NCBI GenBank assembly: GCA_050633305.1
Contig: JBOEGF010000027.1
Location: 63,403-127,402, forward strand
Length of the DNA: 64,000 nt
Origin: Nannocystales bacterium
Lineage (GTDB): Bacteria > Myxococcota_A > Polyangia > Nannocystales > Nannocystaceae
Reading direction: 5' to 3'
This document shows positions 34,658 to 64,000 of this stretch, piece by piece. A program made the translations under genes and the position numbers. Positions within the stretch are counted from its first letter, which is position 1. Each line of letters begins with the position of its first letter. Under the pieces are notes generated by a model. The model made no database searches and was not told the origin of the DNA. It worked only from the letters and a program-made list of their open reading frames with translations.

Positions 34658-34686
34658 CTTCACCACAGCTCAAGGAGACACGACAG

Positions 34687-36063
34687 ATGAAACCGTTTCG
34701 ACTTCATCGACGCACCATGCTCCGCGGCGCTCTCGGAGGCTCCGCGGTCGCGCTCGGCCTCCCGGTCCTGGAGGCCATGCTCAACGGCAACGGCGACGCG
34801 TACGCCAACGGGTCCGACCTCCCCTGCCGGCTGGTGACGTGGTTCTTTGGCAACGGATGCGCCGTCGCCGACGTGAACAACACGGGCGCGGGGATCCGCT
34901 TTGCGCCCGGCGAGACTGGAGCGGGATTCACACCCACCCCCCAACTCCAGCCGCTGGCAGACCGCGGCGTGCTCGAGTACTGCTCGGTGCTCAGCGGCTT
35001 CGACATCGCCGCAGCGGCTCAGCACCGACGCGGGCACCACGACGGGGTCGCCGGCTTCTTCTCCGGGTACCCGTTCGTCGAGCTCCCGCCCAACGGGGCG
35101 AACTACGCCTCGAAGTTCGGTGGTCCCTCCATCGACCAGGTCGCGGCCGAGCGTCTCGCGGGACAGACGGTCATCCCCTCCGTGCAAATGGCGATCTCCA
35201 AACGCATCGTCGGCGGTGAAGGCCCCACGCTGCAGTACCTCTCCCACCAGGGCCCGGACCAACCGCTCGCGCCGTACTTCGATCCCCGCGAAGCCTGGGA
35301 CAAGCTGTTCGGCACCTTCACCGTGCCCGACGATCCGGCCAAGCCCGCCCGACTCTCCGCCCTCGATGCGGTGCGTGAGGACGTGCGGCGCCTTCAGATG
35401 CGCGTCGGCGCCAACGACCGTATGCGGCTCGAGTCCCACCTGGACGCCGTGGCGCAGCTCCGCGGGCAGATCGATGCACTTGCCCCGGTGTGCACGCTGC
35501 CTCCACAGACCGCCCAGACCAACGACGACGTCGAAGGCCAAGAGCAGATCGAGGCCGTCAACGCCGTGATGAGCGAGTTGTTGGCGATCGCATTCGCCTG
35601 CGACATCACTCGCGTCGGCAGCATCCAGTTCACGGGCTCGGTCGGCTACACCGTGTTCAACAACCTGGGCCTGACCCGAGGGCACCACGACCTCACCCAC
35701 GACGCCGCCGAGAACGAGGCGATCGACCAGGCAACCATCTTCACGATGGATCAGTTCGGGGTCCTGCTCGAAGCACTACGCAACATGCCCGAGGGCGACG
35801 GCAACGTGCTCGACAACAGCTGCATCTTGCTGGGCAGTGACGCCGCAGCCGGCCTCACGCACTCCGTCTTCGACCAACCGTGCATCGTCGCTGGCGGCGG
35901 CGGCGGCATGCTCACCCACCCCGGCGTGCACTACCGCTCCGACACCGGCGAGAACACGTCGGACATCCTCCTGTCGTGCTTGCAGACGGTCGATGCCACA
36001 GCATCCGAGGCCGGCGGCGGCATTGGGGTCTCGACCACGCCGTGCAGCGCGATCCTGACCTGA
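34687..36063 (+). CDS. DUF1552 family protein (Tat signal)
   Basis: HRRTMLRG...LPVLEAM, SIDQ, LESHLD, AFACDITRV, HHDLTH, EGDGNVLDNS. AAGGAG SD before ATG 34687. Confidence 0.88.
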   Translation: MKPFRLHRRTMLRGALGGSAVALGLPVLEAMLNGNGDAYANGSDLPCRLVTWFFGNGCAVADVNNTGAGIRFAPGETGAGFTPTPQLQPLADRGVLEYCSVLSGFDIAAAAQHRRGHHDGVAGFFSGYPFVELPPNGANYASKFGGPSIDQVAAERLAGQTVIPSVQMAISKRIVGGEGPTLQYLSHQGPDQPLAPYFDPREAWDKLFGTFTVPDDPAKPARLSALDAVREDVRRLQMRVGANDRMRLESHLDAVAQLRGQIDALAPVCTLPPQTAQTNDDVEGQEQIEAVNAVMSELLAIAFACDITRVGSIQFTGSVGYTVFNNLGLTRGHHDLTHDAAENEAIDQATIFTMDQFGVLLEALRNMPEGDGNVLDNSCILLGSDAAAGLTHSVFDQPCIVAGGGGGMLTHPGVHYRSDTGENTSDILLSCLQTVDATASEAGGGIGVSTTPCSAILT

Positions 36064-36109: not shown

Positions 36110-37009
36110 GTGCGTCGACGTCGCTTCTTAATCTGGGCAAGCCAGGGTGCTGGGGCCTGCGTCGCGGGCGGAACCGCCTCTGAACCCGCTCCAACACCGT
36201 CCGCACCTCCCGCACCGCCCGCCGCCGAACTCGACCCGCTCGAGGCGGCGGCGGAGCAGCTTCGCGCGCGGAGAGCAGACGATGGATTCACAATCCTCGT
36301 CGAAGCGCCGTTCGTCGTCGCGGGGAACGAGGCCCCACAAGACGTCCAGCGCCGGGCAACGCACACCATCGGCTGGGCCACGGCGCTGCTCAAAGACGCC
36401 TACTTCGAACTCGACCCCCCGGACGCGCCGACGGTTTGGCTGTTTCGAGACGACGCGAGCTACCGCCACTGGGCCAAGCGCTTGTTCGACGACGAGCCCG
36501 ACACGCCCTACGGGTACTTCACAGCCGAACACAACGCTCTGGTGATGAACATCAGCACGGGGGGCGGCACCCTCGTGCACGAACTCGTGCACCCGTTCAT
36601 CGACACGAACTTCCCTGGGTGCCCATCGTGGTTCGATGAGGGTCTCGCGTCGCTGTACGAGCAATGCGGAGAGCGAGACGGGAAGATCGTCGGGTTCGAG
36701 AACTGGCGTCTGCCCGGCCTCCAGGCCCAACTCCGAGCCGGCACCAACCCTACGTTCGACACCCTCACTCACACCTCCCGAGACGACTTCTACGCCGATG
36801 AGACCGGAGTGCACTACGCCCAAGCCCGCTACCTGTGCTTCTACTTGCAGCACGAGGGCCTGCTTCGGCGCTTCTACCACGCCTTCCATCAGGCCTCCGC
36901 TTCGGACCCCTCCGGCTACGAGACACTGAAGTCGGTGCTTGGCACGGACGACATGGAAGCCTTCGAGGCGACCTGGAAAGGCTTCGTACTGTCCTTAGAA
37001 CAAAGCTGA
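36110..37009 (+). CDS. Putative zinc metallopeptidase (gluzincin, HExxH)
   Basis: TLVHELVHPF...PSWFDEGLASLYE. Confidence 0.7.
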   Translation: MRRRRFLIWASQGAGACVAGGTASEPAPTPSAPPAPPAAELDPLEAAAEQLRARRADDGFTILVEAPFVVAGNEAPQDVQRRATHTIGWATALLKDAYFELDPPDAPTVWLFRDDASYRHWAKRLFDDEPDTPYGYFTAEHNALVMNISTGGGTLVHELVHPFIDTNFPGCPSWFDEGLASLYEQCGERDGKIVGFENWRLPGLQAQLRAGTNPTFDTLTHTSRDDFYADETGVHYAQARYLCFYLQHEGLLRRFYHAFHQASASDPSGYETLKSVLGTDDMEAFEATWKGFVLSLEQS

Positions 37010-37063
37010 GTGTTCTCGTCATCCCGCTTGCCCGTGGCGCCCCCGCGCCCGGATACTCGTGTC

Positions 37064-37504
37064 GTGTCCCGTGTCCTGAGCATCGCACTCCTCGGCGTAT
37101 GCAGCGCGTGCCAGCTCTGCGACGAGAACGCCGACTGCGAAGGCGGGCGCTTCAACGTGTGGGTCGCGACGTCGGATAACGCCCCACTGCCCGAAGGCAG
37201 TTTTGCGCTCACCGTCACCCCCGATGTCGGAGCCGTGCTTCACGGCGAGTGTATGGTGAGCAGCCAAGGAACCCGCGCAGAGTGTTCCGGAGACGCCGTC
37301 GCCGGCTCCGTGAACCGACGCGATGTTTTCACGTTCCTGCGAATCTCCCAAGACCCGACCTTCGCCACGCTCGTCGGCGTGGGCCTCACCCACAATGGCG
37401 TCGTCGTGGACGAACGCGAAGATGAAACTCTGGACTTCTACCGCGGGGACTCCTGCGACAACGACTGCGGCGTCGCCGACGTCCAGCTCCAACCGCTGCC
37501 ATGA
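37064..37504 (+). CDS. Small Cys-containing lipoprotein of unknown function
   Basis: LLGVCSAC lipobox-like segment. Similar layout to 38194..38613. Confidence 0.6.
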   Translation: MSRVLSIALLGVCSACQLCDENADCEGGRFNVWVATSDNAPLPEGSFALTVTPDVGAVLHGECMVSSQGTRAECSGDAVAGSVNRRDVFTFLRISQDPTFATLVGVGLTHNGVVVDEREDETLDFYRGDSCDNDCGVADVQLQPLP

Positions 37505-37524
37505 CCGCCCTCGAGCGGTCTCGG

Positions 37525-37607
37525 TCCGTGGAGCAGGACTCGAACCTGCACGCGCCGAAGCGCCGTGGTTTTACAGACCACTACCCTGCCAATCGGGTAT
37601 CCCACGG
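37525..37607 (-). tRNA. tRNA-Tyr(GTA), long variable arm, C1-G72, no encoded CCA
   Basis: CCGTGGG AT ACCC GATTGGCA GGGT A GTGGT CTGTAAA ACCAC GGCGCTTCGGCGCGT GCAGG TTCGAGT CCTGC TCCACGG A. Confidence 0.85.
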
Positions 37608-37612
37608 GTGTG

Positions 37613-37694
37613 CGGAGGGTGAGGGAGTCGAACCCCCAGGCCGTTTTGGCCCACCGCTTTCAAGGCGGCTTGGCGTGCCCATGCCGAACCCTCC
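37613..37694 (-). tRNA. tRNA-Ser(TGA), no encoded CCA
   Basis: GGAGGGT TC GGC ATGGGCAC GCC AA GCCGC CTTGAAA GCGGT GGGCCAAAACGGCCT GGGGG TTCGACT CCCTC ACCCTCC G. Confidence 0.85.
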
Positions 37695-37696
37695 AT

Positions 37697-37781
37697 CGGA
37701 AGATGAGGGAGTCGAACCCCCGCTGATTTTCACCAGACCGACGCTTTCCAAGCGAGTGCCTTACCGCTCGGCCAATCTTCC
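37697..37781 (-). tRNA. tRNA-Ser(GGA), imperfect anticodon stem, no encoded CCA
   Basis: GGAAGAT TG GCC GAGCGGTAA GGC A CTCGC TTGGAAA GCGTC GGTCTGGTGAAAATCAGC GGGGG TTCGACT CCCTC ATCTTCC G. Confidence 0.8.
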
Positions 37782-37795
37782 AGTTGCTCACAAAG

Positions 37796-37880
37796 CGGAG
37801 GGGGCGGGATTCGAACCCGCGCTAACGATCGCTAGACCTCGGCGTAGCAGGCCGGCACCTTTCCACTCGGTCACCCCTCC
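37796..37880 (-). tRNA. tRNA-Ser(GCT), no encoded CCA
   Basis: GGAGGGG TG ACC GAGTGGAAA GGT G CCGGC CTGCTAC GCCGA GGTCTAGCGATCGTTAGC GCGGG TTCGAAT CCCGC CCCCTCC G. Confidence 0.85.
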
Positions 37881-37983
37881 AGGTTGTCTCCGCACCCAGA
37901 CAGACGCGGCTGCCAGCTGGGCGTCACGCTGAGCCACAGCGACACGACACGGCACGGCACGGGGGCAGCACGACTGCGATGCG

Positions 37984-38094
37984 CTATCGAGAGGCTCGAC
38001 TGCCCACCGCAGACGCGGAATACGACGGACTCGACTGCACATCGGCGATCGGGGTCGGGAGTCGTACGGCGTTGCGTTGCGCAGGAGCGTTCAT
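37984..38094 (-). CDS. Candidate Ser/Tyr-rich leader peptide (36 aa) upstream of the tRNA array
   Basis: MNAPAQRNAVRLPTPIADVQSSPSYSASAVGSRASR*. Below the ORF-track cutoff. No Ser or Tyr in codons 1-20, then 7 Ser + 1 Tyr in codons 21-36. Confidence 0.65.
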   Translation of the reverse strand: MNAPAQRNAVRLPTPIADVQSSPSYSASAVGSRASR

Positions 38095-38106
38095 CGGTTC
38101 CGCGTC

Positions 38107-38134
38107 AACCTAGCGCCCGGAGGAGGACCGTCAA
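38107..38134 (-). promoter_or_regulatory. Sigma70-like promoter for leader + tRNA array
   Basis: Minus strand TTGACG-N16-TAGGTT ending 12 nt before the leader ATG. Confidence 0.6.
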
Positions 38135-38193
38135 GGCGAAATTGGAACCCGTACTCGCTTGCGGACCCCGACCCGGCGATCGAGACTCGGAGA

Positions 38194-38613
38194 ATGCTCC
38201 GAGCCGTGCTCTTGCTGGCCCTCGCCTGCTGTGGGGTCGGATGCCGCCCATGCAACGAGCGCTGCGTCGGCGGAATGCGGATTTCGCTGGAGGCCGACCC
38301 GGTGCTCTCGGATGGCCGGTACGACGTGGTCGTCACACTGGACGGCGGCACGGCTCTCGAAGCGAGCTGTACCATCGCGGAGCGGGGCACCGTCGCGACC
38401 TGCGAGGGCAGTCTCCACGCTCTCGGGGAAGACGGTTCGCAGGACCTCAACGTCCTGCGACTCTCAGAGCCCGCTTCGGGGGCCGAACACGTCGAGGTGG
38501 AGGTGTACTGGAACGACACCCTCCGCATCGACGCGGATGTCCAACTCGATCAGGAACCGAGCGAGTCCTGCAACCCGCACTGTGCCTGGGCGAGCGCAAC
38601 CCTCCCCTTGTAG
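38194..38613 (+). CDS. Small Cys-containing lipoprotein of unknown function
   Basis: MLRAVLLLALACCGVGC lipobox. Similar layout to 37064..37504. Confidence 0.65.
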   Translation: MLRAVLLLALACCGVGCRPCNERCVGGMRISLEADPVLSDGRYDVVVTLDGGTALEASCTIAERGTVATCEGSLHALGEDGSQDLNVLRLSEPASGAEHVEVEVYWNDTLRIDADVQLDQEPSESCNPHCAWASATLPL

Positions 38614-38624
38614 TTCGGTCGACG

Positions 38625-39617
38625 CTACTGCGCCGCCAGCCCGCTCGACGGCACGGGGACCTCCGTGAGCCTCACAACCGCCTCGAACCCCGCCTCCTGC
38701 AGAGGAACGTCACCGAACTGCTCGAAGCTGTCCTGCAACCCCATGGGTCCGACGAGCTTCTTCGGGTGCGCGGTCGCGTAGAACAGCCCGTTGGTGTCGT
38801 CGTCGAACTCGAGCGCGTCGACATACCGTCTCGCGGCGACCTCCAGCGACCCGGCCATGCCCACCATGGGGCCCAGAGTCTTCATGAACGCATTCAGCAT
38901 CTTCATACCGAACCCCGCGCTGCGAGCGAAGTTGCTGCTCGGAGCCGAACCTGGGGACACTGCGTTGACCGTCATACCGCCGGGCAACCGTCGCCCCAAG
39001 GCTGCAGCCCACCATGCGACAACGAGCTTCGCCGTGACGTACTCCTGCATGTTGGCGAAGCCTTCCTGAGCTTCGGTCTTCGCCAAGGCCACGATCGCAG
39101 CGGTGGAGTCACCATCGAACTGGTCGCGCGCGACGGCGGCAACATCGTGCAGCGGCGTCCCGGGTATCGTTCCGCGAGCCCCTTCGGACCCAGCAATGAC
39201 AATCCGGGCATGGGAGGACAGGAAGCCGGCCTCCCACAGGCGCATCGTCAACACATGGTGCCCGACCAGCGTCGAGGCCCAGGTGATTTCGACGCCGTCC
39301 GAGTTGTACTGCGGCTGCGAACTCGATGCGCCGGCGTTGAGGACGAGTCCATCGATGGGCGTGCCACGTTCGATCAGCTCGTCCGCTGCAGCGCGGGCAG
39401 TCTCCCTCTCAGAGGTGTCGACGGCCAACGTCGCAAAGACATCCTTGCCGACGCGCTCCCGTAGCGCGGCCCGGGCCGCCTCCGCCTTTTCGACGCTGCG
39501 GCACGCCAGGATGACGGTGCCCCAACCGGCCTCGGCAAGCTGCGCTGCGGCTTCAAATCCGACACCAGAGTTCGCGCCCGTGACGAGCACTGTGTTGTTC
39601 TTTCGAGTCTGAGTCAT
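38625..39617 (-). CDS. Short-chain dehydrogenase/reductase
   Basis: VLVTGANSGVGF, LNAG, YVTAK, NAVSPG. Confidence 0.9.
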   Translation of the reverse strand: MTQTRKNNTVLVTGANSGVGFEAAAQLAEAGWGTVILACRSVEKAEAARAALRERVGKDVFATLAVDTSERETARAAADELIERGTPIDGLVLNAGASSSQPQYNSDGVEITWASTLVGHHVLTMRLWEAGFLSSHARIVIAGSEGARGTIPGTPLHDVAAVARDQFDGDSTAAIVALAKTEAQEGFANMQEYVTAKLVVAWWAAALGRRLPGGMTVNAVSPGSAPSSNFARSAGFGMKMLNAFMKTLGPMVGMAGSLEVAARRYVDALEFDDDTNGLFYATAHPKKLVGPMGLQDSFEQFGDVPLQEAGFEAVVRLTEVPVPSSGLAAQ

Positions 39618-62704: not shown

Positions 62705-64000
62705 ATGCTCCCGCTTCGGCTCGGCTCGACCGCGTTGCTCCTCGGTCTGTTCACGGTCGCATGCGACTCCGACCCCACGGCGGGAGGCGGCACTGACGGG
62801 GGAACCGGAAGCAGCGGCGGTACTGACGCCGTCATGGTCACGACGGATGTCACCGACCCGACGGCCCCCACGGACCCGTCGACGACGAGTCCAACGGGCC
62901 CCAGCGAGACGTCCGGGCCACCCACCGACGGCACCACATCCGACGCCACCACCACGACTCCCCCGGACTCGAACGGGCCCGACTGCGGGGACGGAGTCGC
63001 CGAGGGTGACGAGGAGTGTGACGGCGAAGACCTCGGAGATTGGGAATGCTCTGCGTTCGGGTTCATCGAGGGCACGCTCAGCTGCAACGAGATCTGCCAG
63101 CTCGAGTTCGATGACTGTCAGGCGTTCGCCTGCGGCGACGGGGAAGTAGAGCGGCGGGAAGTCTGTGACGGGGACAACCTGGACGAGCAAACCTGCGTCA
63201 GCCTCGGCTTCGACAACGGCACCCTCGCGTGCGCCGACGACTGCTTCGGGTTCGACACCGCCGGGTGTGGCACCTGCGGCGACGGCATCGTCGATCAGGC
63301 GGAGACCTGCGACTCAGCGGAGCTCGGCGATGAAAGCTGTCTGGAGCAGGGCTTCGACGGTGGCACGCTTGGCTGTGCCTCCGACTGCCTCGGCTACGAC
63401 ACGTCGAACTGCACGACCTGCGGTGATGGAAGCGTCGAGGGCACCGAGCAATGCGACGGGAACAACCTAGACGGGGGGAACTGCAGTTCTCAGGGATACG
63501 ACGCCGGAACTCTCCAGTGCAGCGGAAGCTGCGAGTTCGACGAGAGCGAGTGCTTCGACAACACCAACTGCTGTTTCGAGAACGGGAGTGCAGGATGCGA
63601 GGACACCGCGGTGGAGACCTGTGTCTGCGCTGCGGATGCGTTCTGCTGCAACACGGACTGGGATGAGCTGTGCGTCAACCGGGCGATCGACGAGTGCGGT
63701 GCGCAGTGTTCTCTGTGCGGGAACAGCAACCTCGAGGACGGCGAGGTCTGCGACAACAACCAGTTCGGCGGAGCCACATGCGTCACGATGGGCTTCGACA
63801 ACGGGGGGCTGTCGTGCACCAACGACTGCGGCACCATCAGCACGGCCAACTGCGGCACCTGTGGCAATGGGTCCATCGATCCCGCGGAGGACTGTGATGG
63901 GGGCAACCTTGGCGGGCAGTCCTGCGCAAGCCAGGGATTCGACGGCGGCACCCTGTCCTGCAATGCAAACTGCCTGAACTTCAACACCAGCAATTGCATC
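62705..64000 (+). CDS. Cys-rich repeat lipoprotein (myxobacterial disulfide repeats), partial, runs off the right edge
   Basis: Not in the ORF track. MLPLRLGSTALLLGLFTVAC lipobox, Thr/Pro/Ser linker, then at least 6 repeats CG[D/N]G.....E.CD...L....C...GF..GTL.C...C......C. Confidence 0.85.
   Translation, partial: MLPLRLGSTALLLGLFTVACDSDPTAGGGTDGGTGSSGGTDAVMVTTDVTDPTAPTDPSTTSPTGPSETSGPPTDGTTSDATTTTPPDSNGPDCGDGVAEGDEECDGEDLGDWECSAFGFIEGTLSCNEICQLEFDDCQAFACGDGEVERREVCDGDNLDEQTCVSLGFDNGTLACADDCFGFDTAGCGTCGDGIVDQAETCDSAELGDESCLEQGFDGGTLGCASDCLGYDTSNCTTCGDGSVEGTEQCDGNNLDGGNCSSQGYDAGTLQCSGSCEFDESECFDNTNCCFENGSAGCEDTAVETCVCAADAFCCNTDWDELCVNRAIDECGAQCSLCGNSNLEDGEVCDNNQFGGATCVTMGFDNGGLSCTNDCGTISTANCGTCGNGSIDPAEDCDGGNLGGQSCASQGFDGGTLSCNANCLNFNTSNCI

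Follow-up and report, generated by a model that had tools for sequence, protein, structure and literature searches.

Leader-peptide attenuators control the amino-acid operons of enterobacteria (trpL, hisL, pheL, thrL, leuL and ilvL), and the pheM-pheST attenuator and the T-box riboswitches control aminoacyl-tRNA synthetase genes, T-box RNAs binding uncharged tRNA and needing no open reading frame (ORF). Upstream-ORF (uORF) attenuators of the whiB7/wblC and erm type respond to general translation stress, with drug-stalled ribosomes acting whatever the amino acid. The prevailing view of bacterial tRNA genes themselves is that global control, by growth rate and the stringent response, predominates, and how cells fit their tRNA pools to codon demand has long been an open question. 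Here we analyse a stretch of 64,000 nucleotides (nt) from a Nannocystales bacterium of the Myxococcota (hereafter the window), on whose minus strand a short leader ORF with a cluster of Ser and Tyr codons precedes an array of three tRNA-Ser genes and one tRNA-Tyr gene. We consider it probable that this leader ORF is a translated sensor whose decoding speed gates an accessory tRNA array, most likely by negative feedback. This would be ribosome-mediated leader control applied to tRNA genes through a modular codon core, a new class of target for a known principle.

Like the classical attenuators (described in general terms in the available part of PMC1183508), the system has a short same-strand ORF between the promoter and the regulated genes, an arrangement found at 12 homologous loci. 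The putative regulatory codons are cognate, at the level of the amino acid, to the product of the operon and lie beside a hairpin whose other arm contains the stop region, and mutually exclusive pairings are predicted in a second family of leaders (the second scaffold, below). Unlike in the classical attenuators, the targets are tRNAs and not enzymes, which would make tRNA supply the quantity sensed. Several amino acids would be monitored together, and the hairpin-plus-U-tract terminator that defines those systems is absent. As with pheM-pheST and the T-boxes, the state of one particular tRNA or amino acid would govern a part of the translation apparatus; those systems, however, target synthetases, and this leader matches neither the T-box nor any other Rfam family. 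An Rfam search of positions 36500–39000 at E ≤ 1 returned only tRNA-type matches and weak chance ones, and a scan of the leader together with seven second-scaffold leaders found no family except tRNA. In common with the whiB7/wblC and erm leaders, ribosome stalling on a short leader ORF would gate the downstream genes, the difference being that the content of the present leader is specific to the tRNAs that follow it.

The nearest biological parallel is the supernumerary tRNA array of Anabaena sp. PCC 7120 (the L-array, or trn operon), a stress-induced, horizontally spread set of 23 or more genes (PMC8421152). According to the available text of that source, the array is silent in normal growth, is induced when translation is impaired and aids survival. 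Its control is ascribed there to direct repeats over the −10 box and the start site and to a putative repressor, with no occurrence of leader, attenuat- or terminator in that text, in which an L-array is defined as a long array of up to 43 supernumerary tRNA genes for many amino acids. The present system resembles the L-array so described in consisting of extra, divergent tRNA genes, and differs from it in that the arrays hold 2–10 genes, each with its own codon-matched leader. With four supernumerary genes for two amino acids, the locus in the window is short of L-array length. No report of leader-peptide control of tRNA genes was found in the full-text literature searched, most subscription journals lying outside its reach; the available part of PMC3082878 mentions a tRNA operon only in passing.

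The window corresponds to positions 63403–127402 of contig C27 of the genome (G000; 11.0 Mb, 65.9% GC, 90 contigs). The elements of the locus are, in window coordinates:

38129..38134, minus strand: −35-like box TTGACG, read from the sequence
38107..38112, minus strand: −10-like box TAGGTT, 16 nt after TTGACG, with the ATG 12 nt further on
37984..38094, minus strand: leader ORF of 36 codons plus TAG with an ATG start, from the ORF listing and conservation
37987..38034, minus strand: putative sensor codons 21–36, with seven Ser (TCG twice, AGT twice, TCC, TCT twice) and one Tyr (TAT), read from the sequence
37969..38017, minus strand: hairpin H1, from minimum-free-energy and consensus folds
37881..37983, minus strand: structured spacer of 103 nt between the leader and the first tRNA, read from the sequence
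37795..37880, minus strand: tRNA-Ser(GCU), array type, ARAGORN and Rfam (56 bits)
37696..37782, minus strand: tRNA-Ser(GGA), array type, ARAGORN and Rfam (48.2 bits)
37612..37694, minus strand: tRNA-Ser(UGA), array type, of unusual fold, ARAGORN; best Rfam model the selenocysteine tRNA (tRNA-Sec), 39.7 bits
37523..37607, minus strand: tRNA-Tyr(GUA), array type, with C1-G72 and A73, ARAGORN and Rfam (34.9 bits)

The four tRNA genes are separated by 12, 1 and 4 nt. The boxes, the 36-codon ORF, the 103-nt spacer and the four tRNAs had been described in a first-pass annotation made from the letters alone, and this anatomy proved correct to the base, with ARAGORN and Rfam in agreement. Its list of codons 21–36 was likewise exact, and codons 1–20 contain neither Ser nor Tyr. 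It had also called the T-ending codons of the leader uncommon, which is borne out by codon usage in 1,012 long ORFs of this genome, where AGT and TCT account for 5.2% and 4.4% of Ser codons and TAT for 12.9% of Tyr codons. A consensus sigma-70 scan called no promoter sites and missed the TTGACG/TAGGTT boxes. The 12-nt distance from the −10 box to the ATG implies a very short 5′ untranslated region for the predicted transcription start.

The significance of this arrangement derives from comparison with relatives, not from the 64-kb window. A DNA search of 40 relatives matched the tRNA part of the locus and never the leader. Homologous leaders were first found by inspecting the DNA upstream of homologous arrays, where an ORF of the same build was present at each. 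A peptide profile built from nine leader peptides was then run on 72 genomes of the family and 400 genomes of the class. It gave exactly ten strong matches, one per genome and the same ten in both sets (E 2e-17 to 2e-11), the next-best match having an E value of 0.002 or worse. The carriers are three of the six genomes of the bacterium's own genus, the single genome of genus g13 and all six of genus g15. Searching metagenome contigs with a six-sequence alignment added two further loci, bringing the total to 12, and all 12 leader copies lie 83–340 nt upstream of a Ser-tRNA array. In an exact-pattern scan of genome contigs, tRNAs followed only two of the 80 stretches examined out of 109, both in already-known carriers, and the rest were chance matches.

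The promoter-like elements and the frame are conserved along with the position. TTGAC(G/A) occurs at the same position in all 11 homologous leaders inspected, with a TA...T hexamer at the same spacing, and the ATG lies 9–22 nt past the −10 box; by eye, the six leaders of genus g15 have purine-rich, Shine-Dalgarno-like motifs 4–8 nt before it. At all 12 loci the ATG is at a fixed place and the frame is open, and the ORFs keep to 33–39 codons. Ten of ten homologues have no stop in the leader frame, and the other two frames are interrupted in six and two of them. The spacer, by comparison with these elements, is poorly conserved among homologues. Collecting homologous arrays, the check put forward in the first-pass annotation, thus found the leader conserved upstream of Ser arrays at the ten profile matches and at the two metagenome loci, and the view that the leader ORF is a conserved element tied to the Ser-tRNA array is supported by these comparisons. 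The spacer of one homologue (L037, genome G066) is, at 340 nt, far longer than the others; it contains two near-identical 40-nt segments and ends in tandem copies of a unit of about 20 nt.

The ten genome-derived leaders together comprise 367 codons. Ser codons make up 84 of these (22.9%, against 6.0% in long ORFs of the genome) and Tyr codons 28 (7.6% against 2.3%). The rare Ser codons AGT, TCT and TCA account for 30 of the 84 Ser codons, against 12.9% of Ser in the genome, and TAT for 15 of the 28 Tyr codons, against 12.9% of Tyr. The Ser/Tyr enrichment is specific to the leader reading frame.

Leader content also covaries with array content. Nine of the 12 arrays contain a tRNA-Tyr, and the matching leaders have one to five Tyr codons and no Trp codon. 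Two genomes of the same genus, G003 and G005, have arrays that end in tRNA-Trp and not tRNA-Tyr, and their leaders have no Tyr codon and a single TGG, which aligns exactly with the TAT of the present leader in the conserved context Ser-x-Ser-[Tyr/Trp]-Ser. The swap counts as a single evolutionary event, yet it required two base changes at the only informative codon. The leaders sample nearly all Ser codon boxes, whatever Ser isoacceptors the array holds. The earlier claim that the uORF codons match the downstream tRNAs therefore has to be divided. At the amino-acid level it is well supported by the sequence comparisons, through the Tyr/Trp swap and the other leader families described below, and at the isoacceptor level it fails in G003, G005, G018 and G064, with one metagenome locus departing from it at the amino-acid level as well (see below).

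The recurrence of array-matched codon cores in unrelated leaders is, in our reading of the sequences, the strongest evidence for the proposal; an amino-acid match is found in the Ser/Tyr leaders and in two other, unrelated leader families. On contig C13 of the same genome (G000:C13:26362–26783; L085:963–1384, minus strand), a tight, supernumerary Pro(tgg)-Gln(ttg)-His(gtg) array with gaps of 1–2 nt is preceded by a 41-codon ORF with 15 Gln, Pro or His codons among its last 22 (p = 6.7e-5). Its Gln/Pro/His level is reached by one of 26,996 random ORFs, probably the C13 ORF itself. The sole homologue of this leader, in G001, precedes an array with Pro and Gln tRNAs and no His tRNA, and two of the three His codons have been lost from it.

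The second scaffold emerged from a survey in which tRNA clusters were listed in three relatives and 20 of them taken, revealing leaders with cores that spell their arrays. An exact pattern of its two ends has 12 matches in six of the 72 family genomes; the reversed control has none, and there are none in 330 genomes of other families of the class. Eleven of the 12 matches are in-frame ORFs of 25–32 codons with tRNA arrays 95–332 nt downstream (L112, at G000:C10:853022–853417, and L114–L123 in relatives). The cores match arrays as varied as Thr/Val/Asp/Ile, Thr/Asp/Val/Met, Met/Phe, Asp/His, Thr/Val/Ile, Ala/Trp/Cys/Val/Ile and Lys/Asn/Phe with or without Met and Thr. In the orthologous Lys/Asn/Phe group, the counts of Met and Thr codons track the presence of tRNA-Met and tRNA-Thr. 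The leader on C10 heads the sole tRNA-Lys(ctt) gene of this genome, and the device is therefore not restricted to backup tRNAs.

When 13 leaders (the 11 of the second scaffold and two from this genome) were compared with their own arrays, the mean cognate fraction was 0.39; permuted pairings gave 0.194 ± 0.031 with a maximum of 0.335 in 20,000 permutations (p < 5e-5). Among 26 unselected arrays, seven are preceded by an ATG ORF enriched in cognate codons at corrected p < 0.01, where permutation gave a mean of 0.19 and a maximum of 2 (5,000 permutations). In both tests some homologous arrays from different genomes are counted separately.

Several candidates were rejected in the course of these searches. 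The twelfth match to the second-scaffold pattern (L113, genome G044) is not an in-frame ORF before tRNAs, and a partial-motif match in this genome, on C14, falls within a gene of the opposite strand. No cognate enrichment was seen in candidate leaders of the Arg-Arg array of this genome on C47 or of the Pro, Gln-Glu, Glu-Lys and Thr-Tyr-Gly-Thr arrays. Separately, two arrays combine Arg with 'Leu' tRNAs that are 74–77 nt long and hence lack a long variable arm: Arg-Arg-Leu-Leu at G000:C47:18510–19107 (L086) and a three-Arg, three-Leu array in a relative (L099, G066:C159). The latter has an Arg/Leu-rich upstream ORF (corrected p = 0.008) and the Leu pair of the former a Leu-rich one (p = 0.009).

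The 5′ arm of hairpin H1 consists of the codons directly after the Ser/Tyr cluster; its 3′ arm runs from the final two codons through the stop to about 15 nt past it. The duplex between the 3′ part of the uORF and the stop plus 15 nt has a predicted energy of −25.2 kcal/mol (z = −4.3 against shuffles), and over 12 homologues the mean z is −2.09. Consensus folding recovers H1 in both subgroups, with compensatory changes at 11 of 38 pairs in the three same-genus sequences and at none in the g15 group. Folded as a single sequence, the leader does not exceed shuffles in stability (z = −0.83 and +0.11).

In the second scaffold, the partner of codons 2–5 is a segment made up of the final two codons, the stop and 6 nt beyond it, and RNAalifold gives 11 pairs, two of them compensatory. 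Pairing is possible at 65 of 66 positions, as against 3–30 of 66 in a slid register; the search pattern forced four of the six helix columns, and the two free columns pair in 10 and 11 of the 11 leaders. The ends of these peptides would thus be the two strands of an RNA clamp around a variable codon core, which would be why they are conserved. The 3′ strand has an alternative partner 40–64 nt downstream (mean z = −1.67), at a level that in four leaders is matched by at most 3% of shuffles. By analogy, these putative mutually exclusive pairings resemble the layout of a classical attenuator. Both leader families also contain a hairpin built from a short GC-rich hexamer and its complement; it is H1 around the stop in the g15 Ser/Tyr leaders and lies about 30–50 nt past the stop in the Lys/Asn/Phe/Met leaders. 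The two families may share a protein or RNA that binds there, or the likeness may be fortuitous.

Among the 68 tRNA calls of the genome are further copies of all four array tRNAs. Those of Ser-tga and Ser-gct lie on C2 and C18, that of Ser-gga beside Ser-cga on C49, and that of tRNA-Tyr in the usual Thr-Tyr-Gly-Thr cluster, at the beginning of C27. The Ser-gga/Ser-cga pair is present in many relatives; the array and its leader occur in only 10 of 72 family genomes. The array is an accessory set, each of its tRNAs having a second copy from which it is diverged (67–72% identity; 68% for Ser(GCU), 67% for Ser(GGA) and 72% for Ser(UGA)). Every one of the 12 homologous arrays begins with tRNA-Ser(GCU). 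Judged by the compensatory stem changes across relatives, the array tRNAs look functional. In the tRNA-Tyr, C1-G72 and A73 are kept in nine of nine array copies, again with compensatory stem changes, and the housekeeping copy has G1-C72; C1-G72 is the archaeal and eukaryal type of tRNA-Tyr. The name backup tRNAs, used in the first-pass annotation, fits to the extent that each array tRNA has a second, more canonical copy; it does not extend to the similar leader ahead of the genome's only tRNA-Lys(CUU) gene.

Some further features of these and other tRNAs were noted. The CCA end is encoded in several array tRNA-Tyr copies. The tRNA-Sec score of the array Ser(UGA) is below the model cut-off of 47 bits. 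At one of the two metagenome loci (L090), Ser(CGA) and Ser(UGA)-type tRNAs (L090:1953–2038 and 2078–2159) also score higher with the tRNA-Sec model than with the tRNA model, below its cut-off. ARAGORN draws the Sec-like Ser tRNAs with a short D arm and a 6-bp anticodon stem, for which an allo-tRNA-like fold may, we presume, be a possible description. Elsewhere in the genome, ARAGORN made odd calls of a Ser(cga) unlike other Ser tRNAs (C8:538315–538401), an Asn(att) (C32:152651–152730) and a 96-nt Gly(acc) (C7:221521–221616), which are probably false positives or degenerate genes.

In the mechanism that we favour, one promoter would drive the leader ORF and the four tRNA genes, all with long variable arms, as one transcript, and the 3′ half of the leader would present codons for the amino acids of the array tRNAs. 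The speed of the first ribosome over the Ser/Tyr codons would decide between H1 and a different fold in the spacer: a ribosome held on these codons would cover the 5′ arm of H1, and a terminating ribosome the 3′ arm. The choice of fold would set the fraction of transcripts that yield tRNAs, with slow Ser/Tyr decoding giving more array tRNA. What we predict from the sequence is that the ORF is translated and shares a transcript with the tRNAs, together with the sign of the control and the nature of the coupling step. This step may be non-canonical termination, Rho-dependent termination, or processing or stability of the precursor, and it is left to these options because neither a terminator nor a C-rich, G-poor stretch was found.

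Several observations weigh against a ribosome-gated leader. The Ser/Tyr enrichment at this locus by itself is modest, just marginal. Among 26,996 random ATG ORFs of 25–60 codons from this genome, 685 (2.5%) have at least eight Ser plus Tyr in some 16-codon window; scored against all upstream ORFs the enrichment has p = 0.019, or 0.078 when corrected for four ORFs, and with a 20-codon window p = 0.059. The match also breaks down in places. The G018 array has only Ser-gct and its leader keeps TCT and TCG, the arrays of G003 and G064 are without UGA/CGA tRNAs and their leaders keep TCG and TCA, and the G005 array is without a GGA tRNA and its leader keeps TCC. A counter-example at the amino-acid level is L090, which has four Ser tRNAs and, by ARAGORN and Rfam, no tRNA-Tyr, yet four Tyr codons in its leader. 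In G007 a five-gene Ser array has no clear member of the Ser/Tyr leader family, and 19 of the 26 unselected arrays lack a cognate ORF, among them the conserved Thr-Tyr-Gly-Thr cluster and the Pro, Gln-Glu and Glu-Lys arrays.

The leader in the window has no Shine-Dalgarno sequence, with its ATG just 12 nt past the −10 box. Substitutions by codon position number 566, 598 and 709, a weak third-position excess and a faint coding signature. Part of the leader conservation is evidently at the RNA level; weak peptide constraint is, for its part, expected where only certain codons of a leader matter. The homologues are related, and counts across them overstate independence. A scan of 37300–38500 found no intrinsic-terminator-like site, and by eye the homologues have no consistent U tract. 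No rut-like C-rich, G-poor stretch was found in ten spacers, where the best (C−G)/60 values were −0.07 to 0.18. The second scaffold, too, is missing an effector element. An alternative partner for the 3′ arm of H1 is weak (mean z = −0.57) and is not established in the Ser/Tyr leader family.

The same sensor might work with the opposite sign, which we regard as unlikely. Fast translation would then bring a ribosome to the stop, where it covers the 3′ arm of H1 and permits read-through, and stalling would shut the array, an amino-acid-specific, stringent-like stop of tRNA synthesis at amino-acid shortage. The geometry lends itself to this, as a ribosome terminating at the stop would melt H1, one arm of which consists of the stop and the following 15 nt. 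By the logic of the stringent response, moreover, extra tRNA would be no help in amino-acid starvation, and one leader of this kind precedes the sole tRNA-Lys(CUU) gene, a tRNA with no backup. Negative feedback is nevertheless favoured, because the opposite wiring would be a positive, runaway loop driving a scarce tRNA towards zero, because the Ser/Tyr cluster sits just 5′ of the 5′ arm of H1, as do the regulatory codons of classical ON-when-stalled attenuators, and because the duplicate, divergent array fits a reserve set called on demand.

It is equally improbable, in our estimate, that a ribosome-sensed leader acts after transcription, through processing by RNase P, E or III or through stability of the precursor, with read-through unaffected. 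The lack of a canonical terminator and of a rut-like stretch would be accounted for in this way. Strong self-complementarity is a feature of the spacers, which contain about as much C as G (C = G = 36 in the 103-nt spacer of this locus), and the array genes are tightly spaced (12, 1 and 4 nt). Control of processing at the first site would not, however, obviously govern all four tRNAs, and the four-segment alternative pairing of the second scaffold is reminiscent of transcription attenuators.

An untranslated leader conserved as a structured RNA, its open frame and Ser/Tyr content being by-products of folding, is less probable still. Helices do explain part of the conservation of the leader ends, and the third-position signal is weak and the present leader without a Shine-Dalgarno sequence, as set out above. 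Against this stand the fixed ATG and open frame at 12 of 12 loci, the frame-specific enrichment and the Shine-Dalgarno-like motifs of the six g15 leaders. Most telling, in three unrelated scaffolds the variable loops encode the very amino acids that the accompanying arrays carry, which would be pointless for a pure structure. Finally, it is very improbable that the ORF arose by chance in GC-rich intergenic sequence, or that it encodes a small peptide with an independent function and has only its promoter in common with the tRNAs. ORFs of this length are common in 66% GC DNA, and the enrichment in this genome alone reaches only p of about 0.02–0.06, but the leader is conserved, linked to the array and covaries with it. 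In addition, the peptide is poorly constrained outside the RNA-paired ends, and the genes nearby are ordinary.

If the codon-gated leader holds, the rate at which ribosomes decode the codons of a tRNA group would set the transcription of that group. A leader ORF that measures the decoding of particular codons would in this way give tRNA supply a feedback that is both local and specific. Codon demand, or loss of tRNA to nucleases or damage, would then feed back directly onto tRNA gene expression. Such control would explain how divergent spare tRNAs stay silent until needed; tRNA-cleaving toxins, phage defence nucleases and synthetase inhibitors are possible triggers. Whether these Myxococcota have a genome-wide, demand-driven tRNA supply, with many small tRNA operons each under its own codon-matched leader ORF, we judge to be evenly balanced. 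A fixed RNA clamp with an exchangeable codon core could also be re-used as a codon-specific translation sensor.

The neighbourhood of the locus is ordinary chromosome, with paralogous secreted proteins, a short-chain dehydrogenase and a LysR regulator. A DUF1552 (HXXSHH) protein gene lies upstream at 34660–36063 on the plus strand (E = 1e-55), and a 299-residue ORF without family assignment lies at 36110–37009. The array is flanked by two Cys-rich ORFs on the plus strand, at 37010–37504 and 38194–38613, neither with a Pfam family, which have N-termini like those of secreted proteins or lipoproteins and are paralogues of each other (28% identity, E = 5e-9). The array thus looks as if it had been inserted between tandem paralogues.

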